From Promethearchaeota archaeon (GTDB lineage Archaea > Asgardarchaeota > Lokiarchaeia > Sigyniarchaeales > SOKP01), in contig JBHLMP010000015.1 of NCBI GenBank assembly GCA_048938025.1, forward strand, positions 1-51,969: DNA of 51,969 nucleotides. The letters run 5' to 3'. This document shows positions 4,518 to 42,201 of the stretch, one piece after another. The notes under the pieces were generated by a model, which ran no database searches, was not told the origin of the DNA, and saw only the letters and a list, made by a program, of their open reading frames with translations. Position numbers and translations under genes: made by a program. Within the stretch, counting starts at the first letter, position 1; every line of letters begins with the position of its first letter.

Positions 4518-4547
4518 AATAATTATAGTATAATAAAAGCAATAAAT

Positions 4548-5132: not shown

Positions 5133-5357
5133 ATTTAGTCTATAATAGGGTTATTTGAAACCATTCATGAAATGATATAATAAATTATAAAAACTAACTA
5201 TTTTTAAAAATATGGTATTAAATTAATTAATATAAATTTAGATAAAAATTATTAATTAGATGCGTATTAACAACCAAATAAATATGTTAATCAAGTAGAA
5301 AATAATAAAAATAATAAATATTATTATATTGATATAAAAAATTAGATTCTGGTTCAT

Positions 5358-6917: not shown

Positions 6918-7141
6918 AATAAGCAAATCCAAATAAATAACTGGTTTATTTAGATATCTTACTTTTATTCAGATTTTATTAAATTGGTTCAACAGATTTA
7001 ATTATTAGACTCAGTCGATAATAGTTTTCAAAATTAAAAAAAATCTCAGATCTAATAGCTCAGAACTATATATGGTGGTGTTCTTCTCAGACATCGCAAT
7101 TTTGTCGATCGGACGAAATCATTAACCCAATCATATAATAT

Positions 7142-7167
7142 CGGTAATTTACCGTAATATTTATATA
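7142..7167 (+). promoter_or_regulatory. Palindrome CGGTAA-T-TTACCG next to a TATA-like box upstream of the histone gene
   Basis: Perfect inverted repeat 7142-7154; TTTATATA 7160-7167; GGAGG SD at about 7245. Confidence 0.45.
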
Positions 7168-7257
7168 TTTAAATAAAGTAATATAATTTAAAGAAGTTTT
7201 TTGTAAAAATTAAAACATTTTCAAAATATTTTAAATTAAAAAGTGGAGGAATAAAAA

Positions 7258-7470
7258 ATGGCAAAAAAAGTATTTGCTTGGTCCCCTGTGAGAAAATTAA
7301 TGAAAGACAACGGCGCTGAAATGGTTGCTCGAGATGCTGTTGATGCCCTAATTGATTATTTAGAAAAAATGGCTAAGGGTGCAACAAATAAAGCTCTTGA
7401 AATGACCCGACACGCTGGTCGCAAGAAACTCACGCTTGGGGACATGAACTTGGCAATGAATTTGATGTAA
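7258..7470 (+). CDS. Archaeal histone (HMf-like)
   Basis: 70 aa histone fold: SPVRKLMK..GAEMV..AV..L..YLE..A..A..HAGRKKL..D; strong SD; T-rich terminator downstream. Confidence 0.9.
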   Translation: MAKKVFAWSPVRKLMKDNGAEMVARDAVDALIDYLEKMAKGATNKALEMTRHAGRKKLTLGDMNLAMNLM

Positions 7471-7639
7471 AATAAGTCTAAATTAACGAATAATTAATAA
7501 CCTTATTTTTTTATTTTTTTTAATTTATATTTCTTCAATAAATCAATTCATCATTAAGGAGTTGTAAATATAAATAAATAATACTCTACATTTGCATAGA
7601 TTATTTTTCATAGGGAATTAATAACACTATTTTGAAATA

Positions 7640-8830: not shown

Positions 8831-8966
8831 TTTTTCATGACTTTTGAGTTTAATATTAAACATTCCTACAGCTTGAAAAGCGTAATTATTCTTTTTTAAT
8901 AGGTTTTAATAAAATTAAATCATTATTTAATTTACTTTAAACTAATAAAGAATAGAAAATTAAAAT

Positions 8967-26269: not shown

Positions 26270-27568
26270 TTAGTGGGTGGCGCAAGAAATACATGGATCA
26301 AAAGCTCTTATAATTTTTTGAATTTCTTTCTTAACTGTATTTAAATCTTCTTTTTCGTAGAGTTTTCGAGCATAATTACTAATCATCTCATTAATAAGTG
26401 GTATATTTATTTCTGTTGCTATAAATAATTTAGCTTCTTCAAGAACATTTTTATTATTTATTCGATAATGATGAATAAGCAACCCTCTAGGCGCTTCCAC
26501 AACTCCAATCCCTTCTCGAGAAATAATTGATTTAAGATTTGGAAGAGGAATGGTACTTTTTAGAATAGGTTCCTCCAAAATTTTTAATGAATTTTGTGAT
26601 TCAACATACATCTCAATTAATCTTAAAAAGGGCGCATATAGAATATTATTTCTCCATTTGTTATCAAAAAGACTTAAATATTCAGAAATTCCATCTGATC
26701 CATAACTTTCTACAACCTGGTTTCGAGAAATTGGGCCGACTAAGAAATTATGATTTTTATCAGCAAAATCAATACCTCGTATTGTAGGATCTTTGTCAAA
26801 GTAATTAAAATATTCTTCTAATCTGAAGTCCTGACGTTTTGCTAAGTCCTTTTTTATAGTAATAATACCATCATATCTATCATAGGATCTATTATTATTT
26901 AATGAAAGGAAATTAACATTTGGGATTATAAAACTTTCTGGAGGGTTAAATTTTGAGAATAAATCAATGTAGTTTTCAATAATCCATTCTAAATTGTTTA
27001 AAACTTTTAAAAAATACTTTTTGATTATATTTTTCTTATTTTGTGATGGTCTGTAAACAGTTCCCCCTGGGATAGGAGTTATTGTATGAACTGATCTCCC
27101 TCCAAAGAGATAATCTATATCATTTCCTATTTTAATTATATCATATATGTGTGATGTTAATTGTGGGTGAAATTTTATTAAATCATTAACATCAAGAGGC
27201 TTTTTATATATATCAAAAATATTTAAGAGATCTGGTAAGGATTGGAAAAAGTAATGCATAGTATGTGATTTCAATAACTCTCCTGACATTAAGAGCCTTC
27301 TTATTAGAATAGATTGTCGATTAACTTTAATTTTATACATTTCTTCAATGCTTTTACAACTTACTATAGTTTGGGATGCATGGCATAATCCACATATTCT
27401 AGAGATAATTTTAGGAACATCTGATAATTTTTTACCTATTAAGATATTTTCAAATCCCCTGAAGGCTAAAATTTCAAATTCCACACTCGAAATATTATCA
27501 TTTTGAATAAGAATTTTTACATTACCATGCCCCTCAACCCTAGTACAAACATCAATAACTTTTTGCAG
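26270..27568 (-). CDS. Group 3 [NiFe] hydrogenase large subunit (MvhA/HydA-like)
   Basis: TRVEGHG upstream of the track start, RICGLC, EAPRG, DPCISCATH*; probable CTG start at 27568. Confidence 0.88.
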   Translation of the reverse strand: MQKVIDVCTRVEGHGNVKILIQNDNISSVEFEILAFRGFENILIGKKLSDVPKIISRICGLCHASQTIVSCKSIEEMYKIKVNRQSILIRRLLMSGELLKSHTMHYFFQSLPDLLNIFDIYKKPLDVNDLIKFHPQLTSHIYDIIKIGNDIDYLFGGRSVHTITPIPGGTVYRPSQNKKNIIKKYFLKVLNNLEWIIENYIDLFSKFNPPESFIIPNVNFLSLNNNRSYDRYDGIITIKKDLAKRQDFRLEEYFNYFDKDPTIRGIDFADKNHNFLVGPISRNQVVESYGSDGISEYLSLFDNKWRNNILYAPFLRLIEMYVESQNSLKILEEPILKSTIPLPNLKSIISREGIGVVEAPRGLLIHHYRINNKNVLEEAKLFIATEINIPLINEMISNYARKLYEKEDLNTVKKEIQKIIRAFDPCISCATH

Positions 27569-27572
27569 AATA

Positions 27573-28331
27573 TCACCATCTGAATTTTGGTTTCGAAAAT
27601 CTATAGAAGATACCTTTATATTTCCTTAAGTCTTTAGAAAGATTTACAATACTTAAGAAATTTATCAAATTTGATGTGTAATCCTTAGATACAGGTCCTA
27701 AACATCCTTCACAAGGTATCCCATGTTCTATACATATATGATCACATCCCTCCCTGGTTATTGGTCCTAAACATAAAATTCCATTATTTAAAAAGCAATT
27801 TGGATTTTCATCAAGAGAAAATATCTCATCACCAGAAGGATTTAATTTATAAATTTGTTTTTCAATAAGTATGTTATTATTTCCTCTTAGTGGGCATGAT
27901 GAACATAGATTTTTTTCTGACAATTCTATTTCTTTATTTTCTATTAATCTTATTAAACAAGTTCCTATTAGTTTTAAAGGAGGAGGACAACCAGGTATAA
28001 TACCATCGATTTGGACAATATCTGATATTGCACCTGCTTTTTTCTTTTCTGATAAACTTAAAATTCCCCCAAATGCTGCACAAGTACCTAAAGCGTATAC
28101 TTTTTTTGCATTATTTCTAATCTCTTTTAATAATTCAATTTGTGAATCCATCGAGATACAACCTTCTATTAAAGCAATATCACATTCGGTAATTTTATTC
28201 TCATCAGAGATAAAGGGAAAGTAAGAGATATTTGTTCTTTCTAAAAACTCAGGAAATATATCGCTTGAGATTAATGTAGAGATACATCCACTACAGGAAG
28301 TAAGGGATGTTATTAAAAATTTAAGTTTCAG
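27573..28331 (-). CDS. Group 3 [NiFe] hydrogenase small subunit (MvhG/HydD-like)
   Basis: SCSGC and ALIEG upstream of the track start; GTCAAFGG, PGCPP, CLGPITREGC, PCEGCLGP; probable CTG start at 28331 after GGAGGAG. Confidence 0.88.
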   Translation of the reverse strand: MKLKFLITSLTSCSGCISTLISSDIFPEFLERTNISYFPFISDENKITECDIALIEGCISMDSQIELLKEIRNNAKKVYALGTCAAFGGILSLSEKKKAGAISDIVQIDGIIPGCPPPLKLIGTCLIRLIENKEIELSEKNLCSSCPLRGNNNILIEKQIYKLNPSGDEIFSLDENPNCFLNNGILCLGPITREGCDHICIEHGIPCEGCLGPVSKDYTSNLINFLSIVNLSKDLRKYKGIFYRFSKPKFRW

Positions 28332-30867
28332 ATCTAATCTCCTCCGTTAATAGATTATAAAATTTATTTATTGTATTTGTAAATTTGGAACCTTCTACAG
28401 CATTCAGATTCTTTATAATAATTCTCCTACTTAATCGGGGACCTAATACTTTCTTTAACAGGTCTACTTTTTTCTGAATTTTTTGAATTCCATCAATATA
28501 TCTGCATGCATCTTTTCTACAACCAATAACCATTACACCATCAAATCCAAACTCAAAAGATTTAAGGATAAATTCGGTATCAATACGCCCTGTGCATGGA
28601 ACTTTAATTATAAACACATTTGGGTGATAGAATAGTTTCTTTAATCCCGCATCATCTGCAGCAGCATAGCCACAAGATTTACAGCAAAAAGCAATAATCT
28701 TAGGCTTTTTTTTAAATTTAGAAAAAATTTCTATTGTTTTAAGTATTTTTTTGGAAGTATCAATATTCAAATCAATAGCATTTGTAGGACACACACTTAC
28801 ACATGTTCCACAGCCTTTACATTTAAACTTATCGATATTTATTTTATCTCTTCCGATTATTATGGCATTATATGGACAAGAATCTACGCATAATCCACAC
28901 AACCCACATTTTTCTTCATTTATTTTAATTCCTGTAAATTCTGATACTAAATAGTCATTTGAAAGAAGATAAATTATTTCTAAAGCTGTTTGATGTGTTG
29001 TTGAAATTGTAGATTTATAATTTAATGGTCCAAAAATTGTACCAACGCCATAAATACCAGATGCTAATGTTTCTCTACTCATGAAACCATTGTCGTCTAA
29101 AGAAAAGTCCATGTATTTTCGAAGATCTTTTAGATCTTTGTTGGGAATATACTTAAGGTTTAATACAATCAAATCACTTGGAAATTCAATATCATCAGCA
29201 ACCACATTGTTTATATCTTTATTACATTTAATAGAAATATGATTAGCGTAAATAAATCTAGGATTAGTTGATCTTAACAATATCTGATCCTTATCATTTA
29301 ATTTACTCAAATCATAAAAAATATTAACTTTACATTTAGTATTTCTTATTTCAATATCCTCAATATATTTTTGTGCTAAAATTTCAGAGTAATCTGAGAG
29401 TAATTTTGAAGGCCCCACCTCTTGAATAATAGAAACCGAATTTACTTGTTTCTTATCCGATATTCTTAATAATTTCCCTTCTGTAATACCGTCAGAAGAT
29501 AATATACGCTCAAATTCTGGTGAAGTAATAATATTATTTTGAGGATTATAATGATAATCTTTTAAATTCTCACTAAAATCTGACCCGATAGCTATAACTT
29601 TTACACCAACCTTAATTCGGACTTTTTCCGGTTTTTCATTTAAATTAATTGCTTTATTAATACAAGCTCGTTCACAAATCCTACAATTGAGACAGTCTTC
29701 AATATTTTCGTGATCAATTAAAGGGACATATGGATATGAATTCTGAAAAGGGATATATATAACTTTTCTATTTGATAAACCGAAATCATACTGATCCTTT
29801 TTCTCCTTACCACATACATTAATGCATTGTTTACAACCGGTACATTTCTTTTCATCTACATATCTAGGTTTTTTAATTAATTCAATTGTAAAATTTCCCA
29901 CTTCTCCCGAGATTGTTTCAATTTCGCTGTTTGTAAATATTTTGATATTCTTTTCTTTAACTATTTCTCCAATCAATTCTGAAGTGAAACAAATAGAACA
30001 ATCACCCATCTCAGAGATACGGTGCCATCTAGCAACCTTACCTCCTAATGTTGGTGATTTTTCAATAAGATATACTTTTATTCCTGCTTTTGATAAATTG
30101 AGTGCTAAAGTCATACCTGCAATACCCCCCCCTAATATTGCACAAGCTTTCTCAACTTCTACTGTTTTAATTTTTACTTCCTTTTGAAGTCTTACACGTT
30201 CAATTCCTGCTTCTATTAATAATTCTGCTTTTCTTAGAATTAGAACTGCACTAAATTTTTCAAGATTTGAATCATGAACCCAACAGCATTGCTCCCTAAT
30301 ATTTGCAATTTCTATATTTGTATATTCAATCACATCTTTAAAGATACGTTCAAAAATATGTTGGTGTGTTTTAGGAGAACAAGCTGCAATTACTACTTTA
30401 TTTAGAAAATTTTCTTTTGCCCAAGATATGATTTTATTCAAATTCTTTTCTTGACATAAATTATCAAATATCTTGACAGAAACAACATCATTCAACTTTG
30501 CAATATACTTCTCTAAAATTTTAATATTAATAACATTAGAAATTTCAGTATTACAATTACAGATTATTACTCCTATACGATTTATTAAACTTCCTTTTTT
30601 ATCCGAGTATTCTAATTCTTCGCCTGATAAAATACGTTTGTTTAAACTTATTATTTTTAATACTCGTTTACCATCTTCTGTCAAAAAATAAGATCTTTTA
30701 TCTTTACTAATCAATGACCCAAGCTTTTTTAAGTGGAAATTTAATTGCCCCGTTTGGTCTAAACCCAATTTTTCCATTAAATCGGTGTAAGGAATGAATC
30801 CCTCTCTTTCTAAAAGTAAGAGAATTTTTCTACGAAAAGGATGTGATAATATTGAGTAAAGATCCAT
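28321..30867 (-). CDS. ArsR-like wHTH plus HdrA-like flavoprotein plus ferredoxin plus MvhD fusion
   Basis: LSHPFRRKIL..GQLNFHLKKL; IICNC, AACSP, NIREQC, GGGIAG; CxxCxxC repeats; MvhD FCCKSCGY, VPCTGR, GCRKDACRY. Confidence 0.88.
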   Translation of the reverse strand: MDLYSILSHPFRRKILLLLEREGFIPYTDLMEKLGLDQTGQLNFHLKKLGSLISKDKRSYFLTEDGKRVLKIISLNKRILSGEELEYSDKKGSLINRIGVIICNCNTEISNVINIKILEKYIAKLNDVVSVKIFDNLCQEKNLNKIISWAKENFLNKVVIAACSPKTHQHIFERIFKDVIEYTNIEIANIREQCCWVHDSNLEKFSAVLILRKAELLIEAGIERVRLQKEVKIKTVEVEKACAILGGGIAGMTLALNLSKAGIKVYLIEKSPTLGGKVARWHRISEMGDCSICFTSELIGEIVKEKNIKIFTNSEIETISGEVGNFTIELIKKPRYVDEKKCTGCKQCINVCGKEKKDQYDFGLSNRKVIYIPFQNSYPYVPLIDHENIEDCLNCRICERACINKAINLNEKPEKVRIKVGVKVIAIGSDFSENLKDYHYNPQNNIITSPEFERILSSDGITEGKLLRISDKKQVNSVSIIQEVGPSKLLSDYSEILAQKYIEDIEIRNTKCKVNIFYDLSKLNDKDQILLRSTNPRFIYANHISIKCNKDINNVVADDIEFPSDLIVLNLKYIPNKDLKDLRKYMDFSLDDNGFMSRETLASGIYGVGTIFGPLNYKSTISTTHQTALEIIYLLSNDYLVSEFTGIKINEEKCGLCGLCVDSCPYNAIIIGRDKINIDKFKCKGCGTCVSVCPTNAIDLNIDTSKKILKTIEIFSKFKKKPKIIAFCCKSCGYAAADDAGLKKLFYHPNVFIIKVPCTGRIDTEFILKSFEFGFDGVMVIGCRKDACRYIDGIQKIQKKVDLLKKVLGPRLSRRIIIKNLNAVEGSKFTNTINKFYNLLTEEIRSET

Positions 30868-31212
30868 TTCAAAATCCTCCCTATTTCTCTTTTATTATGG
30901 TTTTTTTCGTAATTTTTAATTTTTGATAAATTTATTTTTCCTCATGATAATTATTATTATCGAATTATTTAAACCTTTGTGAAATATTGATCATATAATT
31001 TATGATAATCGTAGCCTATATTATTGATATTAGTCGATCTTTTGTTAATTTTAGTTATAACTAAAAAAATTGTCATATTAGAATTCTTGATTAAAAAATT
31101 TATCAAATTTGAAGAAATTATTCTTGTCAAATTCTTTTTATTTTGATAAAATAATCATTTACTTAGAAAGTAAATTACTTGCAAATTTAAAAATAAAGAG
31201 GTGTATAACTTA

Positions 31213-31830
31213 ATGGAAGTTTTGGAATTTAAGCCAATAAAAAACAAAAAAATTGTAGTATATATGTCATCTAAAGAGAATGTTAAATATTTCCAAAATA
31301 CAGATAACTCTAAACTTATAGAATTTTTAAAAAAGAAAAATATAGACTTTGTGACTGTTGATTTTCAAGTTGACATGAAAGAATTCAGAACAACACCATT
31401 CGCTCAAACATTAAATGGACTAAGCATACCATATTTTCAATTAGATATTCCAGATTATGCTATGGGGTATCTATATCAGGAAATTATTGAAAAACAACAA
31501 TTTCAAAATGAACTGTTTGAAGAATATGAAAATATGGAAGATAAAGAATCGTTTAAAGGGCTTAGTTTAAAAAATTGGATTGATATGTTAGGAGAGGAAA
31601 TTCAGGAAAAAGAAATTTTTCTTAGTTTAAAATTGAGACCTCAATGGATTGTTAAAAAAATGTTAGATTTAGCATTATCGTACAAGAAAGATAATGTGGC
31701 ATTTGTTCATTTTGTTCAAGAAGATATCTGTGAAGATATTTGTCCACAAGTAGTTGAAAATTTAAGAGAATTAAATGTTAAAGTTATATCTTATAATAAA
31801 AAACATACAATTCAAAATATAATATTTTAA
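31213..31830 (+). CDS. Hypothetical protein, paralogue of the downstream gene
   Basis: GAGGTG SD before ATG 31213; N-terminus EVLEFKPIKNK and overall layout match 31855. Confidence 0.75.
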   Translation: MEVLEFKPIKNKKIVVYMSSKENVKYFQNTDNSKLIEFLKKKNIDFVTVDFQVDMKEFRTTPFAQTLNGLSIPYFQLDIPDYAMGYLYQEIIEKQQFQNELFEEYENMEDKESFKGLSLKNWIDMLGEEIQEKEIFLSLKLRPQWIVKKMLDLALSYKKDNVAFVHFVQEDICEDICPQVVENLRELNVKVISYNKKHTIQNIIF

Positions 31831-31854
31831 TAAAAAAAAGAGAGGCGATAATAA

Positions 31855-32580
31855 ATGCCAGAAGTATTAGAATTAAAACCTTTAAAAAATAAGATCTTAA
31901 AGTTGATTTTGATTGAGAGTGAGTTTCCTATCGACTGGTGGTTTGAAGTTCCCAAGGATTATAAAGAAGATCTTTTTTGGAATCTTCATTTAATTTCTAA
32001 GGAATACCTTCAATTAATTGATTCGTTAATAGAAAAATATAAACCGAATTTTATTTTAGAAGAAAGGCCAAATTCATGGAGTGAAGAACTGAATAAAAAT
32101 GATCCTTTAAAAATACTTCTTACAAAACGTGGAATTCCATTTAAACATACTGATATTTCAGAAAATGCTGAATTATATCTCTCTTCAGCATTGGATGAAC
32201 ACAGGACAATGATTAAGAATCTCGAAAAAAGAGTCAATGGTATAATGAAAGAATTTAAAGAGAAACCTGAAAAAGAGGAATTTATTCAACGATTAGTATT
32301 ATGGAAAGAATATTTACAAATGGATTACAAGAGTCAAGAAGATGAAGTTAGATATAAAGTTCGAGAAGCATGGATGATGATGAATATTTTGAAGTTTGCG
32401 AAGGAATTTGAAGGAAAGAAATTGAAATGTTTATTCATATGTGATCCTCGACATTTTAACGGTCTTGAGAAACTTTCATTGGATCTTGGTATTGAAACAG
32501 AACAAGTGAAAATAAATAGGAAGATTAAAACTGAAGAAGTCGGCGAAATATTTGAAAAAGATTTAGAAATTGATAATTAA
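31855..32580 (+). CDS. Hypothetical protein, possibly TraB/Tiki/ChaN-like fold
   Basis: KYKPNFILEE, VREAWM, LFICDPRH resemble the P..V..E, R..M and G..H elements of that superfamily; product call tentative. Confidence 0.6.
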   Translation: MPEVLELKPLKNKILKLILIESEFPIDWWFEVPKDYKEDLFWNLHLISKEYLQLIDSLIEKYKPNFILEERPNSWSEELNKNDPLKILLTKRGIPFKHTDISENAELYLSSALDEHRTMIKNLEKRVNGIMKEFKEKPEKEEFIQRLVLWKEYLQMDYKSQEDEVRYKVREAWMMMNILKFAKEFEGKKLKCLFICDPRHFNGLEKLSLDLGIETEQVKINRKIKTEEVGEIFEKDLEIDN

Positions 32581-32629
32581 AAGTTATTTTTTATTAAATT
32601 TTTAAATATAAAAAAAATAGTTGATGTAA

Positions 32630-33625
32630 ATGGTAGAAAGAGAAATTGAAAATATCCTTGGAAAAAAATCAATAATAGAACTGACACCGATTATTATTAA
32701 AAAGAAAGATACATCCGATAAAATTTGTTATTTTTTTGATACGGATGACAATGCATCTCCATTTGATATCAATATGGCATATGATGCCGGTTTTGATGTT
32801 GTAATCCCTTATAACAATATAAAGGTTGATAAAGTAACTCAATTAGTCCAAGATGCGATGTTTTCGAGAAAAGCAGGTGCTCCAACAGTTTATTTTATTG
32901 GTGGTTCCGATGTAGAAGAAGTTGATAAAGTTGCCGAAACTGTATTAAGCTCGCTTGTACCTCCTTTTGAATCTCCTGTAATAATAGATCCAAGAGGTGC
33001 TTATACAACTGCTGCAGCAATGGTTGCTAAGTCTATAGAAATTACTCGAAAGCTAGGATGGCATGATCTCTCTGGTAAAAAAGTAGTCATTTTAGGAGGT
33101 ACAGGTCCAGTCGGACAAATTGGTGCAATTTTAGCTGCAAAGCTTAATTGTACTACTGTGATAACATCCCGAAGGGAGGAAATTATCAAAACTTTGGCAC
33201 AGAACTTAACTGAAAAAGCAGGAGAAGGAGTAACCGAAATTATTGGTGCTGTAGGGATTACTGATGAGCAAAAATATAAACTTCTTAAAGAAGCTGACAT
33301 TATTTGGTCTGTAGCTAAAGCAGGAGTCCAAATGGTTTCAAAAGAGCTATTGGAAAAATTACCTAAGAATAAGATCGCAGTTGATATCAATTTAGTACCT
33401 CCCTACGGAATTGAGGGATTAAAACCAAAATTTGAAGGTGATGAAATAGTTCCAGGAATTTATGGAATTGGAGCTTTAGGTGTAGGGAGACTAAAATACA
33501 AGACTGAGAGTAATATTTTTAAAGAAGCATCAGAGAGCAAAGGTAATAAAATCTTTGATTATCATAACGCTTTCAAACTAGCGTGTAGGATTCTTTTCGA
33601 TGAAGAAATTGAAATTACAGCTTAA
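32630..33625 (+). CDS. NAD(P)-dependent methylene-H4MPT dehydrogenase (MtdA/MtdB family)
   Basis: DTDDNASPFDINMAYDAG, VQDAMFSR, DPRGAYTTAAAMV, LGGTGPVG, DINLVPPYGIEG. Confidence 0.85.
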   Translation: MVEREIENILGKKSIIELTPIIIKKKDTSDKICYFFDTDDNASPFDINMAYDAGFDVVIPYNNIKVDKVTQLVQDAMFSRKAGAPTVYFIGGSDVEEVDKVAETVLSSLVPPFESPVIIDPRGAYTTAAAMVAKSIEITRKLGWHDLSGKKVVILGGTGPVGQIGAILAAKLNCTTVITSRREEIIKTLAQNLTEKAGEGVTEIIGAVGITDEQKYKLLKEADIIWSVAKAGVQMVSKELLEKLPKNKIAVDINLVPPYGIEGLKPKFEGDEIVPGIYGIGALGVGRLKYKTESNIFKEASESKGNKIFDYHNAFKLACRILFDEEIEITA

Positions 33626-33636
33626 AGAAAGCAGAA

Positions 33637-33669
33637 ACTTATATAGAATTAGAAATTCAATTTCTAATT
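33637..33669 (+). promoter_or_regulatory. TATA-like box plus perfect 11-bp inverted repeat (operator or terminator)
   Basis: ACTTATATAG followed by AATTAGAAATT-C-AATTTCTAATT (33647-33669). Confidence 0.45.
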
Positions 33670-33718
33670 TACTTTTTTTAAATTTTTATAATTGTAAATA
33701 AAAATAAGGGTTCCAATT

Positions 33719-34606
33719 ATGGTCTATAAAATTTTAATGAAAAAAGAATTAGGAAGTAGTAGAACGTTATTTGAAATGGAATTAGACATGCCTTTAATTG
33801 CTAAAAAGGCGCGGGCTGGAAATTTTATAATAATCAGAATAAATGAGAAAGGAGAGAGAATTCCTTTAACTGTTGCTGATTATAATCGAGAGAAAGGAAC
33901 TATAACGATTGTTTTTCAGGTTGTTGGTAAAACAACAAAATTATTATCGACATTAGAAAAGGGAGATTTCCTTCTTGATGTTGTTGGACCTTTAGGAAAT
34001 GAAATTCATTTGAAAAAATATGACTATCCTGTTGTAATTATTGGAGGTGGAGTGGGTATTGCTCCTTGTTATCCTCAAGCAAAAGAATTGAAAGAAACAG
34101 GAAACAAGATAATATCAATTATTGGTGCAAGGAGTAGTGATTTATTATTTTGGAGAGAAAAGATGAAACAGGTTAGTGATGAGTTAATAATTTGTACAGA
34201 TGATGGAACCGAAGGGAAAAAGGGTGTGGTTACTGACCCTCTTAAGGAACTTTTAAAGAGAGAGCCTTTAAGTCTAGTTATTTCTATAGGACCATTAATT
34301 ATGATGAAATTTGTAGCTTTAACGACAAGTGGGTATGAAGGATTACCTAAAGTAAAAACAATGGTCTCTCTAAATACGATTATGATCGATGGTACTGGCA
34401 TGTGTGGAGGATGCCGATTTTCCACAATAGATGGGAAAATATATTTTGCCTGTGTGGATGGTCCTGATGTGGATGGTCATATTGTAGATTTTGATAATCT
34501 ATTAAAACGTGCTAAAAGATTTATGGCTCAAGAAAAGGAGAGTATTGAACGCTATGAACATGAATGTAAGGCTGTAGAAAAACTCAAAATGGGAGGTTTA
34601 ATTTAA
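33719..34606 (+). CDS. nfnA: NfnA/SudB small subunit (FAD/NAD-binding, 2Fe-2S)
   Basis: GERIPLTVAD, VVGPLG, GGGVGIAP, TDDG, DGTGMCGGCR..ACVDGP. Confidence 0.9.
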   Translation: MVYKILMKKELGSSRTLFEMELDMPLIAKKARAGNFIIIRINEKGERIPLTVADYNREKGTITIVFQVVGKTTKLLSTLEKGDFLLDVVGPLGNEIHLKKYDYPVVIIGGGVGIAPCYPQAKELKETGNKIISIIGARSSDLLFWREKMKQVSDELIICTDDGTEGKKGVVTDPLKELLKREPLSLVISIGPLIMMKFVALTTSGYEGLPKVKTMVSLNTIMIDGTGMCGGCRFSTIDGKIYFACVDGPDVDGHIVDFDNLLKRAKRFMAQEKESIERYEHECKAVEKLKMGGLI

Positions 34607-34607
34607 A

Positions 34608-37394
34608 ATGCAAAATCAAACAACTATTATTAACATTTTATTAGATAATAAACAGAAGATTTTGAAAGCAGCAAAATTCGATGAAACCGAGTTTGATTGC
34701 TTAATCTTCAAACTAAATAAAGCTGAAAAACAAAGAAAAAAGATTTTACAGAAAATTAAAGATATGGGAGAATTTAATATAGAAAAATTCAGTCAAGAAT
34801 TAGCAATCTCGCGTCAAAATTTAACATTAGAGATTGATTACTTACAAGAATTAGGTTTTTTGAAATCTGTAGGAAAGGAATCGCGATTTTTCCAATATTT
34901 ATTGGATGAATATAGATCTAAGGGTGTTTTTCCTAATGTATCTATTATTAAAGAAAAAAACTTATGTTGCGGTTGTGGATTATGTGTTTCTCTATGTCCT
35001 TTAAATGCAATTAAATATTCTGAAGATACTTTTGAAGTCATAGAGGAAGACTGTATCAATTGTGGATTATGTTTTGCATGTTGTCCAAGATCATTTTTTC
35101 CAATAAATCTCAAATTTCTTAAAGAGAATGAAGAGATAAAAGCTAAGTTTTCTGATCAAATAAATTATTACCGAGAAGTCTGTACTGCCCAGACAAATGA
35201 TAATCAAATAATTGAAGTTGCTCAAGATGGAGGTATCGTAACAAGCTTATTAAAAACTGCTTTTCAAGTAAATATGATTGATTCTGCTTTAGCTGTGGGA
35301 TTAACAAATAAACCACACAAGCCAATACCTATCATCGTTGAAAATGTGGATGATTTATTAAAAACGGCTGGAACAAAATATAGTAATACACCTTCTTTAA
35401 AAATTTTACATGAATCTAAAAAATATAAAGATATTGCGATAGTCGGGACACCTTGTATGATGGAGGGGCTTAAAAAAATATCCATTTATCCATTTAACGA
35501 ACCTTTTTATGATAATATCGCTATAAAAATTGGATTATTCTGTATGGAATCATTCGATTACTCACAAATTTTAGAGCTGTTAAAAAATGAATTTCAAAAA
35601 CCTGCTACTGATATTATTAAAATGAATATAGATAAAGGTAAATTTCTCCTTTATAATAATGATGGTACTTCAATAAATATTCCTTTAAAAAAGATCAAAA
35701 AGTATGGAAGATTGGGTTGTTTCTTCTGTGATGATTTGACTGCTGAACAAGCAGATATATCGGTAGGGTCTATTAGTTCTGAGCCGGGATGGTCAACAGT
35801 TATAATTAGGACTCAAAAAGGTGCTGATCTATTTCAAAAAGCATTGGATTTAAAAATAATCGAAAAGAAAGAAATTAAGGAAGATGATAAGCGTTTTGGT
35901 GATTTAGAACGGATAGCAAAATCAAAAAAGAAGATCTATAAGGAAGGATGCAGACCTAAAATGATTGAACAAGATCCTAAAGAAAGAATAAAAAATTTTG
36001 ATGAAGTCCCTTTTGGATTAACTGAAGAAATGGTGAAATTAGAAGCTCAAAGATGTTTACAATGTGGGAGGCCTTTGTGCATTACAGGATGTCCAGTAAA
36101 TATAAATATCCCTGAATTTATTAGATTAATCAAATTAGGCAAAAATATTGATGCATTACATCTAATTAAAAGAGATAATTTATTACCAGCTATTTGTGGA
36201 AGAGTCTGTCCTCAAGAAACTCAATGCGAAGAAAAATGCTTATTAAATTCACTCGGAGAACCTATTTCAATTGGTTATTTAGAAAGGTTTCTTGCTGACT
36301 GGGAAAGAAAAAATAAGCTTAAAGAATGTCCTGATTGTCAAACGCCCAATAATATTAAAGTAGCTGTTATTGGATCGGGACCTGCTGGGTTAACATGTGC
36401 GGGCGATCTTGCAATGAAAGGTTATAATGTTACACTGTTTGAAGCTTTTCATGCAGGTGGAGGAGTATTGGTCTATGGAATACCTGAATTTAGATTGCCT
36501 AAAGAAATCGTTAAAGATGAGATTGAAACTTTGAAAATGCTTGGTATTGAGATAAAATATAATACTATTGTTGGTAAAACTTTAACTCTAGAAGATTTAA
36601 AAGAAGAAGGTTTTAGGGCATTTTTTATAGGTGTTGGAGCAGGGCTTCCTATGTTCCTAAGAATTCCTGGACTGAGTTTGAATGGGGTTCTAACAGCAAA
36701 CGAATTTCTAACAAGATCTAATTTGATGAAAGCATATAGATTTCCAGAATATGATACTCCAATAAAGGTTGGAAAGATTGTTACTGTTATTGGTGGTGGG
36801 AATGTTGCTTTAGATTCAGCCAGAACAGCATTAAGGTTAGGTGCAGAGAAAGTAATTGTTGTCTATAGAAGGTCAGAAGCAGAAATGCCTGCTAGAAGGG
36901 AAGAATATCATCATGCTATAGAAGAAGGTATTGAATTTCAATTTTTAACAAACCCAACAAGAATCATTGGTGATGAGAATGATAATGCTAAAAAAATGGA
37001 GTGTCTTAGAATGAAATTAGGAGAACTAGATGATTCAGGAAGGCGAAGCCCTATTCCCATTGAAGATTCGGAATTTGTAATTGAAACTGATGCAGTAATA
37101 CTTGCAATTGGGGCTTTGGCAAATCCTATTCTAACAAAGTCAGTCCCTGGTTTAAAATTAAACAAATGGGGTTATATCGAAACTGATACGGATGAAAGAA
37201 CGAGTATAGAAGGTGTATATGCTGGAGGAGATATAGTGACTGGAAGTGCTACAGTAATCTCTGCTATGGGCGCAGGAAGAATAGCCTCAGTGGCTATAGA
37301 TAAATATCTTAGAAATAAATTTCTGAATAAGGTAGATTCTATTGAAGTTGAAATGTTGGAAATTAGGACAATTAAGAAAGAGAAGATAAAATGA
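34608..37394 (+). CDS. wHTH plus 2x4Fe-4S plus FrhB (F420-binding) plus NfnB/SudA/GltD fusion
   Basis: QDGGIVT, AGTKYS, VGTPCM, IGLFCME, ADISVG (FrhB); EAQRCLQC, CGRVCPQETQCE, GSGPAG, GGGNVA, AGGDIVTG (GltD/NfnB). Confidence 0.9.
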   Translation: MQNQTTIINILLDNKQKILKAAKFDETEFDCLIFKLNKAEKQRKKILQKIKDMGEFNIEKFSQELAISRQNLTLEIDYLQELGFLKSVGKESRFFQYLLDEYRSKGVFPNVSIIKEKNLCCGCGLCVSLCPLNAIKYSEDTFEVIEEDCINCGLCFACCPRSFFPINLKFLKENEEIKAKFSDQINYYREVCTAQTNDNQIIEVAQDGGIVTSLLKTAFQVNMIDSALAVGLTNKPHKPIPIIVENVDDLLKTAGTKYSNTPSLKILHESKKYKDIAIVGTPCMMEGLKKISIYPFNEPFYDNIAIKIGLFCMESFDYSQILELLKNEFQKPATDIIKMNIDKGKFLLYNNDGTSINIPLKKIKKYGRLGCFFCDDLTAEQADISVGSISSEPGWSTVIIRTQKGADLFQKALDLKIIEKKEIKEDDKRFGDLERIAKSKKKIYKEGCRPKMIEQDPKERIKNFDEVPFGLTEEMVKLEAQRCLQCGRPLCITGCPVNINIPEFIRLIKLGKNIDALHLIKRDNLLPAICGRVCPQETQCEEKCLLNSLGEPISIGYLERFLADWERKNKLKECPDCQTPNNIKVAVIGSGPAGLTCAGDLAMKGYNVTLFEAFHAGGGVLVYGIPEFRLPKEIVKDEIETLKMLGIEIKYNTIVGKTLTLEDLKEEGFRAFFIGVGAGLPMFLRIPGLSLNGVLTANEFLTRSNLMKAYRFPEYDTPIKVGKIVTVIGGGNVALDSARTALRLGAEKVIVVYRRSEAEMPARREEYHHAIEEGIEFQFLTNPTRIIGDENDNAKKMECLRMKLGELDDSGRRSPIPIEDSEFVIETDAVILAIGALANPILTKSVPGLKLNKWGYIETDTDERTSIEGVYAGGDIVTGSATVISAMGAGRIASVAIDKYLRNKFLNKVDSIEVEMLEIRTIKKEKIK

Positions 37395-37464
37395 GAATTT
37401 TTAAATTTTATATAAGCTTTAAAAATTCTTGATAGAAAATAAAAAGGATATGAGGGTTATAGAT

Positions 37465-39711
37465 ATGGAATCAGAGCAAAAATTAAGAATTAAAGATGCT
37501 TTTAAAGAGGATGCGGGAAGAGGAATTATAAGAATAGATCCAGATGTAATAAAAAAATTAAAGTTGAAAGTAGGTGATGTTATTAGAATTTCTCATCCTT
37601 TTGCAAATAAAAAAACTGTTGCGGTATTATCATCAGCAAGAATTGAAGATAATGGATCACAAGTAATTAGAATGGATCCTTCTTTAAGGAGAAATTTAAA
37701 TGCTTCTATTGATGATCTTGTGGAGATAAAAAAGATTGAAGTAGATTTAGCTACGAGTGTAAGTTTTGCTGGATTAAATAGTTCATTGATCCCACGTGAC
37801 CCTCAAGCTATGGCAAGAAAATTAGAAAATCGAGTCATTACTTTGGGAGACAGCTTGAGTTTTTACGCAATGGGACATAGAATTGATCTAGTTGTCGTTA
37901 ATTATATTCCGAAGTCAGAAGCCGTTAAAATTCATCTTAATACGAGTATAGAATTTACAGAAAAACCTCAAAATACTATAGAAACAAGAAAGACCATTGT
38001 CAAATATGAAAAAATAAGTGATATTGAAGAAAAATTACAAAAAATACGTGAAAAAGTAACTTATGAGGATATTGGTGGATTGGAAGCATCAATTCAAAAG
38101 ATTCGTGAAATTATTGAACTTCCAATAAGACATCCAGAACTTTTTGAGAGAATAGGAATTGAACCACCCAATGGGGTTTTATTATTTGGCCCTCCAGGTA
38201 CAGGGAAAACATTATTAGCAAAAGCAGTTGCCTCAGAAACAGATGCATATTTTATGAGTATTAGTGGTCCTGAAATAATGAGTAAGTTTTTTGGACAGAG
38301 TGAAGAAAATCTCAGAAAAATATTTGAAGAGGCTAAGGAGAATTCTCCTTCGATAATTTTTCTAGATGAATTAGATTCTCTTGCTCCAAAGAGAGATGAA
38401 GGGAAAAATCAAGTTGAATTAAGAGTAGTTGCTCAATTATTATCCCTTATGGATGGTTTAAAAGGAAGAGGAGAGGTAATTGTAATAGGAGCAACAAATA
38501 AAGTAAATAATATTGATATTGCATTACGAAGACCCGGAAGATTTGATAGAGAAATTGAAATAAAAGTCCCCGATAGTAATGGACGTTTTGAAATATTGTT
38601 AATTCATACCAGAGGAATGCCTTTAGGCGAAGATGTGAATTTAAGATTAATAGCTGAAAAAACACACGGATTTGTTGGAGCAGACATAAGATCTCTATGC
38701 AAAGAAGCTGCAATCCTTGCTATTCGTGAAATAATTCCTGAAATTGATTTAGATGAACCTATTCCGGAAGTAATTTTAAATCAATTAAAGATAAAAATGA
38801 ACCACTTTCTTGAAGCCCTAACTAGCATTGAACCCTCAGCTTTAAGAGAAGTGTTGATAACTCATCCTTTAGAAACATGGGATGATATTGGGGGATTGGA
38901 GGAAGCAAAACAAGAATTAAAAGAAATTGTTGAATGGCCCTTAAAATATCCCGGGTTTTACAATTATATGAAATCGAGACCTCCTAATGGTATTCTTATA
39001 TATGGTCTCCCTGGTACTGGAAAAACTTTACTTGCTAAAGCTCTTGCTCATGAAACTGAAGTTAATTTTATCTCAGTAAAAGGTCCCGAATTCTTATCTA
39101 AATGGGTAGGAGAAAGTGCTAAAGCTGTTCGAGAGACTTTCCGCAAAGCACGATCTACAGCACCATGTATTATTTTCTTTGACGAGATAGATGCTATCGC
39201 ATCTAGACGTTCAGAATCTTCTGATTCAAAAGTAATAGATCAGATTGTAGCACAACTTTTAACTGAAATGGATGGTTTGGAAGAATTGAAAGATGTGGTG
39301 TTGATTGCGGCTACTAATAGACCTGATTTGCTCGATCCTGCATTACTTAGATCAGGGAGATTTGGCAGACATATTGAAATTCCTCTCCCAGATAAGAAAA
39401 CTCGTATAAATATCTTAAAAATTCATCTAAAAGATCGTCCTATTAATGATGAAATAAATATGGAATCATTAGCTCAAGAATTAGAAGGATATAGTGGTGC
39501 TGATATTAAAGCAGTATGCGAAGAAGCTACAATTTTAGCAATTCGAAAAGGTGTTTTCCACGTTGATATTGATGCATCGAATCCTAACTCTTATTCTAAA
39601 ATTAAAATTTCCCAAGAAGACTTTGAAAAAGCTATAGCAAAAATCAAAAAAGTTGCAGATCAAGCAAATAAATCCTACAAGGAAATTACCTACGGGGAAT
39701 TATATAGATAA
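37465..39711 (+). CDS. cdc48: Cdc48/VCP/VAT AAA+ ATPase
   Basis: DAGRGIIRID N-domain; GPPGTGKT and GLPGTGKT; two Walker B motifs; C-terminal LYR (HbYX-like); start placed at ATG after GAGG. Confidence 0.93.
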   Translation: MESEQKLRIKDAFKEDAGRGIIRIDPDVIKKLKLKVGDVIRISHPFANKKTVAVLSSARIEDNGSQVIRMDPSLRRNLNASIDDLVEIKKIEVDLATSVSFAGLNSSLIPRDPQAMARKLENRVITLGDSLSFYAMGHRIDLVVVNYIPKSEAVKIHLNTSIEFTEKPQNTIETRKTIVKYEKISDIEEKLQKIREKVTYEDIGGLEASIQKIREIIELPIRHPELFERIGIEPPNGVLLFGPPGTGKTLLAKAVASETDAYFMSISGPEIMSKFFGQSEENLRKIFEEAKENSPSIIFLDELDSLAPKRDEGKNQVELRVVAQLLSLMDGLKGRGEVIVIGATNKVNNIDIALRRPGRFDREIEIKVPDSNGRFEILLIHTRGMPLGEDVNLRLIAEKTHGFVGADIRSLCKEAAILAIREIIPEIDLDEPIPEVILNQLKIKMNHFLEALTSIEPSALREVLITHPLETWDDIGGLEEAKQELKEIVEWPLKYPGFYNYMKSRPPNGILIYGLPGTGKTLLAKALAHETEVNFISVKGPEFLSKWVGESAKAVRETFRKARSTAPCIIFFDEIDAIASRRSESSDSKVIDQIVAQLLTEMDGLEELKDVVLIAATNRPDLLDPALLRSGRFGRHIEIPLPDKKTRINILKIHLKDRPINDEINMESLAQELEGYSGADIKAVCEEATILAIRKGVFHVDIDASNPNSYSKIKISQEDFEKAIAKIKKVADQANKSYKEITYGELYR

Positions 39712-40149
39712 GTCATCCTGAATTCAATTTTCCAAAAAAATTTTTTCCTTTTTATAGATTGGATTAAAATACATTAATCATGGGAAATACTATTTTTAAT
39801 TATTACTCTCTAGAATTAGCAGGTAAAAAAACCTCACATAATTGTGCAATTTTGCTACTTTCTTTCACCTATGTTGATTAAGAATTTTTTTCAATTAATA
39901 GACAGGATTGATCATTTTATGGTTCAATCTCGATAATATTGATGATTGAATCCTAACAATTTAGTCAAACTATCGACCAACCAACCAATGCATAATACAC
40001 GAAAAGGATCATCTTTATATAATTTGATAATTTATATTTATCATAGGGATCATATCATTCACTAAAACAATCAATATTATTTTTGAAATCATAAATGTAT
40101 TAAATTTTATTTTAAAAAATAATGGTGATGTTTCACAAAGGTGGATTAA

Positions 40150-42201
40150 ATGTCTGAAATGCAGACAATAGTTAGAATCGGAGTATATATCTGTAAATGA
40201 GGAGTTAATATTGGTGCTAATATTGATTGTGATCTTATAAGGGATTATGTTGAATTTCTCCCGAATATAATTATTGCCAGAGTTAATGATTTTACTTGCA
40301 GCGATTCAGGGCAAAAAATTATTAAAAACGATATCATAGAACTGAATTTAAATAGAGTTGTTGTTGCTGCTTGTACACCAAAAATTCATGAATCCACCTA
40401 CCGAGCTGTTTTAGTTGAAGCGGGATTAAGTCCTTATTATTTTCAAATGGTTAATATTCGGGAACATTGTTCATTTATTCATTCTGGTAATAAAAAAGCT
40501 GCAACAAAAAAAGCTATTAGATTAATAAAGGCAGGTATAAATCGCTCACGGGAATTAGAAATTATCCCATATAATAAAATTTCATTGGAAAAGGCTGTAT
40601 TAATTATTGGTGCAGGAATTGCTGGGATGAATGCAGCATTAGATTTAGCAAATCAAGGATTTATTGTTTATTTAATAGAAAAAGAAGCTACTATCGGTGG
40701 AAAAATGGCACAATTAGATCGAATTTATCCAACAGATGATTGTGCTATATGAGTTCTTGCGCCTATTATGGTGAGTGCTTCAAAGCATCCAAATATAAAT
40801 TTAATGACTTATAGTGATATTGTCGGATTCAGTGGAAACCCCGGGAATTATGAAGTTAAAATAAGAAAAAATCCCCGTTATATTGATGAAAATAAATGTA
40901 CTGGTTGTGGATTATGCATGGCAAAATGTCCAATAAAAATTCCTAACGAATTCAATAGAGGCATTGGGGAACGAAGCGCAATTTACATACCTTTTCCTCA
41001 AGCAATGCCTAAGATTGCCCTAATTGATAAGAATACGTGTATAGAATGTAAAAATTGCCAAAGATCTTGTCTTGCGGAGGCTATTGATTTTGAACAAGTT
41101 CCAGAGTATGTAGATTTAAAAGTTGGAGCAATAATCGTGGCTACAGGATGGGATGAATACTCAATTATGAGAAGTAATGAATATAAATATGGTATTTATC
41201 CTGATATAATTACTCAATTAGAGTTAGAACGTATGTTAAGCCCGGTTGGTCCAACAAATGGACATCTTTACAAGATTTCTAATGGAAAAACCCCAAAAAC
41301 TGTAGTTATGATTCAATGTGTTGGCAGTAGATCCTTAAAAGGTAATCCATATTGTTCTGGAGTATGCTGTAATGTTGCCCTTAAAAATGCTCAACTATTA
41401 AAACAAGAATATCCTGACATGAATATTGCTATTTTTTATATAGATATTCGGACATGGGATAAAGGAAATGAAGAATATTATAGAAAAGCAAGAGAAGCAG
41501 GCATAATGATGATTAGGGGAAAAGTTGGAGATATTCGGGAAGATCTGGATACAAAAAAACTAAAAATCCATGCATCTTCTACCTTAACTGGTGAAATTAT
41601 TACAACAAATGCAGATTTGGTTGTACTATCAACCGGTATGGTCCCTTCCCAAAATATATCAAAAGTTAGCGATATTTTAGGCTTAAGTAAAGATGCAAAT
41701 GGCTTTTTAACTGAAATTCATGGATGTTTAAAACCTCAAGAGACAAATAGTATAGGTATTTATATTTGTGGATGTGCTGCAGGTCCTAAAAATATTCCTT
41801 ATTCAGTATCAACAGCATTAGCCGCAGCAAGCAAAGTATCAACATTACTTTCTAAAGATATAATGACTCAAGAATTAATAATTGCTGAAGTAGACAAAAA
41901 TCTTTGTATGGGTTGTCATAGATGTAGCAAATTGTGTAACTACAAAGCTATATTGGTTAATAAAGAAGGATTTGCTGAAGTAGATTCTCTAAAATGTAAA
42001 GGTTGTGGAGTTTGCGTAACATCCTGCCCTGCTCGAGCAGTTGATCTCAAATATTATAGAGATAAACAAATTATTGAAGAAATAAAAGGAATTTGTAGTA
42101 CTGAAATTGAATATAAGGTAGAAGACATTGAATTAATTGAGCATATAAAGGAAAAGATTGAATCAATAGCTCCTCTTAAAATTTTACCCGAAATAGAATG
42201 A
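40150..42201 (+). CDS. hdrA: Heterodisulfide reductase subunit A, selenoprotein with two in-frame UGA codons (U17, U201), 683 aa
   Basis: One continuous frame: IGVYICK-TGA(40198)-GVNIG..AACTP..NIREHC..GAGIAG..PTDDCAI-TGA(40750)-VLAP..QCVGSR..YCSGVCC; both TGAs occupy Cys positions. Confidence 0.9.

Follow-up and report, generated by a model that had tools for sequence, protein, structure and literature searches.

A contig of a Promethearchaeota archaeon (JBHLMP010000015.1, positions 1 to 51,969, of assembly GCA_048938025.1; these 51,969 nucleotides are called the window below) carries a pair of co-directional genes at positions 33719–37394 that encode an NfnA subunit and a 928-residue partner of unusual composition. 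In the partner, a complete NfnB is preceded by a winged-helix-turn-helix-like (wHTH-like) segment, a ferredoxin domain with two [4Fe-4S] motifs and an FrhB-type domain. The two proteins may form an NfnAB-type enzyme in which the low-potential arm, which normally delivers electrons to ferredoxin, is extended to the deazaflavin cofactor F420. We give this assignment an even chance of being correct. The fusion protein itself is genuine and recurs in one family of the phylum, and its cofactor motifs are intact.

The stop codon of nfnA (TAA, 34604–34606) and the ATG of the fusion gene (34608) are separated by one base, as read directly from the sequence and from the coordinates of the open reading frames (ORFs), which agrees with how the sequence-only reading described the pair. 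The two genes may be translationally coupled. The window is AT-rich (GC content 0.23–0.34), and a promoter and terminator scan of positions 30800–40200, made with bacterial-type models on this AT-rich archaeon, returned 64 promoter-like sites against 46.5 expected and three terminator-like sites against 3.6, figures that are uninformative for such a genome. NfnA scores 373.4 bits with the curated model PRK06222 (cut-off 220) and aligns end to end with Pyrococcus furiosus NfnI-S (5jca_S, E = 1.1e-87) and Thermotoga maritima NfnA (4ylf_A, E = 1.2e-77), including the DGTGMCG.C cluster motif. It is closer to NfnI-S (297 bits) than to the small subunit of NfnII/Xfn (5vj7_B, 162 bits).

The C-terminal half of the fusion is a canonical NfnB. 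It contains Fer4_20 (PF14691 family; residues 460–570, E = 1.2e-39) and Pyr_redox_2 (PF07992 family; residues 584–890, E = 4.4e-37), scores 596.1 bits with TIGR01316 over residues 457–901 (cut-off 471.75), and matches T. maritima NfnB (4ylf_B) with 574.4 bits and E = 1.5e-171, residues 6–459 being aligned against 7–462. Its cluster cysteines (483, 486, 491, 495, 530, 534, 540 and 544) are each present in 49–50 of 50 homologs. The AlphaFold2 model of the whole fusion has a mean predicted local distance difference test (pLDDT) of 79.1 and a predicted TM-score of 0.64. The complex predicted for NfnB (residues 451–928) with the ferredoxin and FrhB domains (residues 106–450) has ipSAE values of 0.01 and 0.01, which count neither for nor against contact between the two parts.

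Directly before the FrhB domain, residues 113–162 match a Pfam 4Fe-4S dicluster family. FrhB_N (PF04422; residues 192–267, E = 7.8e-19, 68.0 bits against a cut-off of 22) and FrhB_C (PF04432; residues 274–425, E = 2.3e-42, 144.9 bits against 23.3) are both complete. Together with the Pfam hits, the curated models and the alignments to structure chains give scores far beyond chance, and the composition first read from the letters (a full NfnB at the C-terminus, two 4Fe-4S motifs and an entire FrhB domain before it) is therefore confirmed. The best solved match of the ferredoxin and FrhB domains is 8riu_B (E = 1.3e-53, residues 114–442), with 8rja_E at 1.5e-47. The FrhB proteins of three methanogens align to the same residues with E values from 4e-51 (3zfs_C) to 2.7e-44. 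Further matches are F420-dependent sulfite reductase (Fsr, about 1e-40) and 9tn7_A (2e-40), which is named only F420 hydrogenase/dehydrogenase beta-subunit domain protein. All solved relatives at E < 1e-39 (8riu_B, 8rja_E, 3zfs, 6qgr, 6qii, 9r51, 7np8, 7npa and 9tn7_A) bear F420-related names. The alignment to 8riu_B, 8rja_E and 7np8_A runs from the ferredoxin domain onward, and the fusion has the layout by which PMC3448663 defines the Fsr-N/FpoF type, namely FrhB preceded by two ferredoxin-type [4Fe-4S] clusters.

The FAD (flavin adenine dinucleotide) pocket of Frh is described in PMC3930138 as the motif 24-QDGG, the loop G73–T77 and the loop 131–138, which holds a cluster cysteine. The aligned segments of the fusion (QDGG at 206, AGTKY at 254 and GLFCMESF at 309) are identical or nearly so, and a further motif, GC..C..ADISVGS..GWSTVIIRT at residues 370–402, also aligns with FrhB-type chains. 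Q206, G208 and G209 are nearly invariant among the 50 homologs. All eight ferredoxin cysteines and all four FrhB cysteines are kept in 50 of 50 full-length homologs, and each of the 20 Fe–S cysteines of the fusion in 49–50 of 50. The sequence-only reading had raised decay of the FrhB sites as a possible objection; by motif alignment and cysteine conservation, the FAD and [4Fe-4S] sites are intact. The mean pairwise identity among the 50 homologs is 0.47 in the N-terminus, 0.58 in the ferredoxin domain, 0.62 in FrhB and 0.74 in NfnB; for the FrhB and NfnB domains, these values fit purifying selection.

Table 1. Genes, domains and signals of the nfnA–fusion locus (window coordinates).
Feature	Position	Strand	Remarks
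MtdA-like NADP-dependent methylene-tetrahydromethanopterin dehydrogenase	32630..33625	+	93 nt upstream of nfnA; Mpt_N 9e-25
nfnA (NfnA/NfnS; FAD, NAD(H), [2Fe-2S] subunit)	33719..34606	+	295 residues; PRK06222, PF10418, PF00175, PF00970
GGAGG Shine-Dalgarno-like motif in the end of nfnA	34592..34597	+	11 nt 5' of the fusion ATG
Fusion gene, 928 residues (wHTH-like, 2x[4Fe-4S] ferredoxin, FrhB, NfnB)	34608..37394	+	no internal stop
Conserved helical N-terminal domain, residues 1–105	34608..34922	+	winged-helix-like core at about 37–90; model pLDDT 83.6
Ferredoxin domain, residues 106–185	34923..35162	+	two CxxCxxCxxxC: C120/123/126/130 and C149/152/155/159
FrhB-type F420 oxidoreductase domain, residues 186–445	35163..35942	+	predicted FAD and one [4Fe-4S]; Cys 283, 312, 371, 374; QDGG at 206
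Linker between FrhB and NfnB, residues 446–456	35943..35975	+	pLDDT below 50 at 443–446
Complete NfnB, residues 457–905	35976..37322	+	two predicted [4Fe-4S] in Fer4_20; FAD and NADPH Rossmann domains

Misassembly, an eventuality that the sequence-only reading had kept in view, does not account for the fusion. Evidence for this comes from other genomes of the family, from protein clusters and from independent metagenome contigs. In a search of 400 species-representative genomes of the phylum, with two candidates scored per genome, the full-length fusion (E = 0, query from about residue 1 to at least 905) is found in at least 56 of the 135 genomes of the window's family, spread over 7 of its 13 genera. 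In three further genomes of the family (G147, G204 and G212) it is shorter or cut by a contig end. None of the 265 genomes outside the family carries it, and no match listed there starts before query residue 419. Two closed genomes of a sister family (G135 and G138; 4.4 and 6.0 Mb) have plain nfnA–nfnB with 60–62% identity and no fusion. The architecture search proposed across Asgard genomes thus recovers the fusion in relatives of the window's genome, but the fusion is confined to one family and is not Asgard-wide. In a collection of 5.8 billion proteins, 90 of 120 clusters among the matches listed cover at least 92% of the fusion at 58–97% identity and contain Pfam domains of FrhB as well as of NfnB; the named clusters among those listed are "NADPH-dependent glutamate synthase" of Promethearchaeota or Lokiarchaeota metagenome-assembled genomes (MAGs). 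An exhaustive HMMER scan of 1.84 billion representatives of 50%-identity clusters yielded, among the best 150 inspected, one full-length protein (P0067, 64%), one 420-residue N-terminal piece, the 90% cluster of which also includes a 902-residue member, and 148 proteins matching in NfnB only. Sediment-metagenome contigs from other studies bridge both the nfnA–fusion boundary and the FrhB–NfnB junction, one of them spanning 35724–36190 across the latter.

A second fused copy, 67% identical and also preceded by nfnA, is encoded on contig C45 of the window's genome. Overall, nfnA lies directly upstream in 25 of the 25 fused loci for which upstream sequence is available (27 fused loci were examined). 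All 18 unfused loci are plain nfnA–nfnB with no FrhB gene between or beside them. In one genome (G175; L018, G175:C211:62000-74500) two full-length fusions stand in tandem on the minus strand (3361–6081 and 6130–8871) behind a single nfnA. A candidate for a split form (G212:C36, a 484-residue ORF matching residues 3–475) was rejected, the ORF being cut by the contig end.

The NfnB half is 70–75% identical to the unfused NfnB of sister genomes. An IQ-TREE phylogeny was built from the NfnB domains of 27 fused and 18 unfused genes (45 rows; only high-scoring pairs below 55% identity or of 400 or fewer query residues were excluded). On this tree, the fused state requires five changes (bootstrap 5–95% range 4–6), and none of the 200 bootstrap trees requires only one. 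At least three of the changes are forced by well-supported branches. The approximately unbiased (AU) test rejects a single fused clade (difference in log-likelihood 118, p = 0.00026). In a quick tree, the unfused NfnB of the window's genus is sister to a fused gene of the same genus. The number of changes and the AU rejection therefore indicate that the ferredoxin–FrhB cassette has been added, removed or swapped among paralogs more than once, on an NfnB core that stayed canonical. Gains and losses are indistinguishable here because the tree is unrooted.

The organism appears to make and use F420 and to have no Frh hydrogenase to reduce it. In profile searches of the genome, cofH (463.6 bits, cut-off 374), cofD (312.9, cut-off 257) and two genes for the F420-dependent methylene-tetrahydromethanopterin (H4MPT) dehydrogenase Mtd exceed their cut-offs. 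Two Mer-like genes are present below cut-off. FrhA does not reach its cut-off in the genome (best score 143 bits against 392), and the hydrogenases of the genome look Mvh-like. Within the family, cofH exceeds its cut-off in 113 of 135 genomes.

In the Nfn enzymes of T. maritima and P. furiosus, NADPH reduces a bifurcating FAD (b-FAD) in NfnB. One electron then passes via the [2Fe-2S] cluster and a second FAD (a-FAD) of NfnA to NAD+, and the other via the two [4Fe-4S] clusters of the NfnB N-terminal domain to ferredoxin. Parts of this scheme are confirmed in PMC9012536. The enzyme encoded in the window would have the same core, to which NfnA would contribute the NAD(H) site, a-FAD and [2Fe-2S], and NfnB the b-FAD/NADP(H) site and two [4Fe-4S]. 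This core would be lengthened on the side usually reserved for free ferredoxin, directly upstream of the NfnB N-terminal domain, by a covalent relay consisting of the two [4Fe-4S] clusters of the ferredoxin domain, the FrhB [4Fe-4S] cluster and the FrhB FAD, from which electrons would reach F420. Electrons could then be exchanged among NADP(H), NAD(H) and F420(H2) without soluble ferredoxin, formally as 2 NADPH + NAD+ + F420 <-> 2 NADP+ + NADH + F420H2. In a fermentative sediment archaeon, such an enzyme would tie the pools of pyridine nucleotides to the F420 pool, which in turn would feed or drain the F420-dependent H4MPT enzymes of the Wood–Ljungdahl pathway in an organism that lacks Frh hydrogenase. 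From comparison with characterised enzymes we infer the electron path and the use of F420 as substrate, as well as the stoichiometry, direction and physiological role. The assignment also gains support from the gene string, which includes a gene for an MtdA-like NADP-dependent methylene-H4MPT dehydrogenase.

The proposal that the low-potential arm ends at F420 follows from analogy with two characterised systems. Fsr (7NP8, 7NPA) likewise carries an N-terminal 2x[4Fe-4S] ferredoxin, an FrhB-type F420H2 oxidase and a catalytic module in one polypeptide, and its electrons run from FAD to cluster 1, then through the ferredoxin domain (clusters 2 and 3) into the next domain (bioRxiv 10.1101/2022.04.07.487323). 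Unlike in Fsr, the catalytic module here is NfnB, which is bifurcating and has an NfnA partner, instead of a siroheme sulfite reductase, and a wHTH-like domain stands in front. In Ca. Ethanoperedens thermophilum, the F420-reducing CODH and Fwd complexes contain zeta subunits (8RIU_B, 8RJA_E) with the same layout of ferredoxin (residues 1–83) and F420-reductase (84–349). This module connects both enzymes to F420, an activity that has been measured (PMC11493965), and so turns a "ferredoxin enzyme" into an F420 enzyme. The zeta subunits are separate and docked through the ferredoxin domain, whereas the module in the window's protein is covalently fused and its host enzyme is Nfn. With FrhB of the F420-reducing [NiFe] hydrogenase (3ZFS, 4OMF, 6QGR), the fusion shares the FAD-pocket motifs and the four cluster cysteines (the match at 4e-51 given above), but it has an extra ferredoxin domain and no FrhA/FrhG partners. 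Since it misses the TIGR03289 cut-off for frhB and no FrhA in the genome exceeds its cut-off, the domain is assigned to the FrhB family and not to a hydrogenase subunit.

Compared with canonical NfnAB, both subunits are adjacent and full length, with all Fe–S motifs and both Rossmann folds. The differences lie in a 456-residue N-terminal extension of NfnB (wHTH-like, ferredoxin and FrhB), which was seen in none of the solved or described Nfn enzymes that were found, and in the presumed third substrate, F420 instead of free ferredoxin. In HdrA9–11 of ANME-1, reported in PMC9012536, a bifurcating enzyme has likewise acquired an NfnB module to give a natural chimera; there, NfnB is inserted in HdrA and no FrhB is present, whereas here FrhB precedes NfnB and NfnA is kept. 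The window's genome encodes a protein comparable to the ANME-1 chimeras, a 1648-residue HdrA-like protein with an inserted NfnB-like unit (Fer4_20 at 158–235, Pyr_redox_2 at 251–551) and a C-terminal MvhD (FlpD) domain (L051, G000:C36:8500-17500, ORF 1923–6866). A functional analogue that links the F420 and NADP pools is F420H2:NADP+ oxidoreductase (Fno), a small cofactor-free hydride-transfer enzyme of unrelated fold and mechanism.

Several considerations weigh against an F420-linked Nfn. The potential of NAD(P)H is about -320 mV. F420, with an E0' of -340 mV (PMC10667645), is nearly isopotential with it and is not a low-potential acceptor. An Nfn that ends in F420 would therefore have no energetic need of coupling and would gain nothing from bifurcation. 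At a high NADPH/NADP ratio and a low NADH/NAD ratio, the enzyme would run towards reduction of NAD+ and F420 and dissipate energy; the Ethanoperedens CODH and Fwd complexes are reported to trade energy for direction as well (PMC11493965). The same task could be accomplished by a simple Fno, and the genome has an Fno-like gene of 212 residues (PF03807, 75.5 bits; npdG, 77 bits, below the cut-off of 149.8). Only 56–59 of the 135 family genomes carry the fusion. Moreover, unfused nfnAB nest among the fused ones, so the module is dispensable in close relatives. The FrhB part stays below the equivalog cut-offs of TIGR03289 (228.7 against 331.5), PRK09325 (258 against 269) and FpoF (155.9 against 475), and acceptors other than F420 occur in the FrhB family, as illustrated by the FrhAGB hydrogenase of Thermococcus, which is reported to reduce rubredoxin (PMC13333549). 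On balance, the F420-linked Nfn is plausible and partly supported, and thermodynamically puzzling.

Alternatively, the enzyme may still be a ferredoxin-dependent Nfn in which the ferredoxin–FrhB part serves as an extra port, giving a four-substrate hub for ferredoxin, F420, NAD and NADP. The complex would then in effect also be a soluble ferredoxin:F420 oxidoreductase of the FpoF/FqoF type docked on Nfn. Very little separates the NfnB half from canonical NfnB, as seen in its 574 bits to 4ylf_B and its identity to unfused sisters, and the tree shows repeated switches between the fused and the unfused form, which suggests that the core chemistry is not visibly changed. A soluble FqoF/FrhB between reduced ferredoxin and F420 has also been proposed for archaeal homoacetogens (PMC10667645). 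However, a ferredoxin domain tethered at the N-terminus of NfnB would probably occupy the site of free ferredoxin or compete for it, and we regard such a hub as rather unlikely, though worth keeping in mind.

The scores below the FrhB and FpoF equivalog cut-offs and the Thermococcus result also fit an FrhB domain that does not use F420 at all and works as a flavin/Fe–S module for rubredoxin, a quinone-like or thiol compound, or O2 detoxification, in the manner of FrhB-family proteins from pathways or organisms that lack F420. The substrate pocket is empty in the FrhB structure of PMC3930138, and residues in contact with F420 are not defined in that account. Against this stand the cofH genes of the family, together with cofD and the two F420-dependent Mtd genes of the window's own genome, the F420-related names of all close solved relatives and the retention of the FAD and substrate-channel loops of FrhB. 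A role without F420 is thus quite improbable.

The N-terminal 105 residues are the part of the protein for which the original description holds least firmly. The fold is conserved, helical (helices at residues 6–13, 15–20, 26–53, 58–65, 69–82 and 96–105) and confidently modelled, but all matches to helix-turn-helix families are sub-threshold. A Pfam scan of the whole fusion gives no match at E <= 0.01 in this region. When the N-terminus is scanned alone, HTH_11 is hit in 15 of 24 homologs (best E = 0.0025), HVO_A0114 in 15 of 24 and CggR_N in 13 of 24, all below threshold. A Foldseek search of the pdb set with the N-terminal model gives no match at E <= 0.001; winged-helix DNA-binding domains nonetheless head its results (CggR; 5duk_B with probability 0.99 and a root-mean-square deviation (rmsd) of 0.9 Å over 42 columns; Lrp with 0.97), and local matches of this kind have probabilities of 0.97–0.99 and rmsd values of 0.9–1.5 Å over 42–48 columns. 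The VIA fold search, which is independent of Foldseek, lays residues ~37–90 on Lrp/AsnC, ROK, Z-alpha, DeoR, IclR and CggR domains at about 2 Å over some 51–54 residues, with Z scores of 5.0–5.9, a range called "middling" by the tool's own note. "wHTH-like" is thus a fair label for the modelled fold and not a proven assignment, and the role of the domain may be either structural or regulatory.

A winged helix in this position brings to mind a redox-sensing regulator, or "trigger enzyme", in which the helix would bind DNA and the redox state of the flavin and Fe–S cofactors would control expression of the operon. PutA follows comparable logic. Such a function would suit an N-terminal domain that is conserved (mean identity 0.47, as given above) and confidently folded around a winged-helix-like core, and HTH-type N-termini also occur on a neighbouring HdrA-like protein in the window (DUF7347, E = 1.5e-10) and on a stand-alone FrhB protein of the genome. 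The HTH evidence is sub-threshold, however, and an hhalign comparison of the N-terminal alignment with the DUF7347 N-terminus of the HdrA-like neighbour gave no significant link (probability 5%, E = 0.0079). Because the full enzymatic machinery is conserved, regulation would be at most an added role, and such a trigger enzyme is very unlikely. That the fusion instead supplies the GltD-like small subunit to an F420-dependent glutamate synthase, as the database label "NADPH-dependent glutamate synthase" on its relatives and the FrhB-type subunits proposed for such synthases (FGltS in PMC3448663; FrhB10 in PMC9012536) might suggest, is hardly credible, given a C-terminal half with 574.4 bits to NfnB against 273.5 bits to true GltD (6s6s_G), the constant pairing with nfnA in the 25 assessable loci, the absence by Pfam and BLAST of a glutamate-synthase large subunit at the locus, flanked as it is by MtdA-like and CDC48 genes (a genome-wide gltB was not searched for), and the FGltS proposals themselves, which in PMC3448663 consist of separate subunits and a synthase domain, not NfnB.

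The extension to F420 thus stays the preferred assignment, and with it the fusion is a portable ferredoxin–FrhB adaptor applied to Nfn. The sequence-only reading did not recognise the protein as a characterised enzyme, and in agreement with this, no such architecture was found in full-text searches of the literature. Neither an FrhB–NfnB fusion nor an F420-linked Nfn came to light in them, though an earlier mention is possible in papers on Asgard metabolism and their supplements. For fermentative, homoacetogen-like Asgard archaea without Frh, the reduction of F420 for the H4MPT branch is a recognised gap, with HdrA–MvhD–FrhB or FqoF routes proposed to fill it (PMC10667645); the nfnA–fusion pair is a concrete, clonable candidate for this gap. 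It would also be a natural experiment in bifurcation, in which the Nfn core is canonical and the diffusible low-potential acceptor is exchanged for a tethered relay to a mid-potential two-electron carrier. Any change in coupling, gating or direction would bear on how Nfn controls electron flow. Furthermore, the fusion, which is restricted to one uncultured family, would extend an emerging rule by which the ferredoxin–FrhB cassette converts ferredoxin enzymes to F420 enzymes (Fsr, Fpo, and the CODH and Fwd of Ethanoperedens). A more speculative proposal, which taken as a whole we consider doubtful, is that this is the first flavin-based bifurcating or confurcating enzyme with its "ferredoxin" branch hard-wired to F420, that it works with three hydride carriers (NADPH, NADH and F420H2) and in Loki-type archaea uses the pools of pyridine nucleotides to set the redox state of F420, supplying or draining the F420-dependent Wood–Ljungdahl steps without hydrogenase or free ferredoxin, and that it regulates itself through the N-terminal winged helix.

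FrhB-family proteins are numerous in the genome and comprise, besides the two fusions, a stand-alone protein on contig C85, a 605-residue fusion and two shorter FrhB_C proteins. The stand-alone protein (496 residues; L008, G000:C85:1-8000, 1524–3014, minus strand) consists of the N-terminal, 2x[4Fe-4S] and FrhB parts, is 35–37% identical to residues 8–452/464 of the fusion and is encoded downstream of an HdrA-like gene. From this position, the cassette seems to work with HdrA in addition to Nfn, and the module formed by the N-terminal, ferredoxin and FrhB domains therefore appears to behave as a plug-in for flavin-bifurcating cores. The 605-residue protein (L047, G000:C15:44000-51000, ORF 2797–4611) combines FrhB_N/C with a PyrK/NfnA-type [2Fe-2S] domain (PF10418) and is encoded directly after the POR alpha, beta and gamma genes. 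It may be part of a 2-oxoacid oxidoreductase linked to F420, which would recall the FrhB–Pfor clusters reported for ANME-1. In P0178, a Logan-derived protein of ~820 residues, an NfnB-like unit is inserted between FrhB_N and FrhB_C. Full-length relatives of P0178 with 46% identity occur in three MAGs (L052–L054), two of them titled Promethearchaeota. Two NfnB-like ORFs of ~845 residues (L056 and L057; G000:C22 and C6) were considered as further FrhB fusions and rejected, being NuoG-like plus NfnB-like. Their NuoG-like N-terminus has a [2Fe-2S] and an Nqo3-type ferredoxin, and each adjoins a pair of BcrAD/BadFG-type ATPase genes.

The gene string of the window's paralog consists of two ORFs of unknown function, the MtdA-like gene, nfnA and the fusion, and the same order is found in G177 and G168. 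The MtdA-like protein matches 6tlk_A, 6tge_A and 1lu9_A over residues 29–324 with E values of 1.1e-32 to 4.4e-32. Its gene lies upstream of nfnA in seven loci of this paralog (L001–L005, L009 and L022), and the order MtdA-like, nfnA, fusion recurs in L001–L005. The two ORFs (209 and 241 residues; window 31201–32580, plus strand) are adjacent and mutually similar and match no Pfam family; the ESM Atlas returns only unnamed Promethearchaeota clusters for them, with a weak TraB/GumN lead (0.83). Further upstream, on the opposite strand (26270–30867), lie genes for the large (PF00374) and small (PF01058) subunits of a [NiFe] hydrogenase. They adjoin a gene for an 848-residue protein composed of the DUF7347 wHTH domain mentioned above, an HdrA-like flavoprotein and MvhD (FlpD, E = 1.5e-33), which makes it the second redox enzyme of the window with an N-terminal HTH-type domain.

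Downstream of the fusion, the gene for CDC48 is followed by an HdrA-like gene (40150–42201, plus strand) with two in-frame TGA codons at cysteine-motif positions, one in ICK-TGA-GVNI near 40198 and the other in DDCAI-TGA-VLAP at 40750. This gene probably encodes a selenocysteine-containing HdrA. The HdrA-like gene on contig C85 (L008:3571-5271, minus strand) is split in ORF calling at the same relative position, into 101 and 459 residues, as against 101 and 477 in the window. Further along the window, a 947-residue protein (43144–45987, plus strand) has a SIR2_2 domain (E = 2.7e-09) followed by many TPR repeats.

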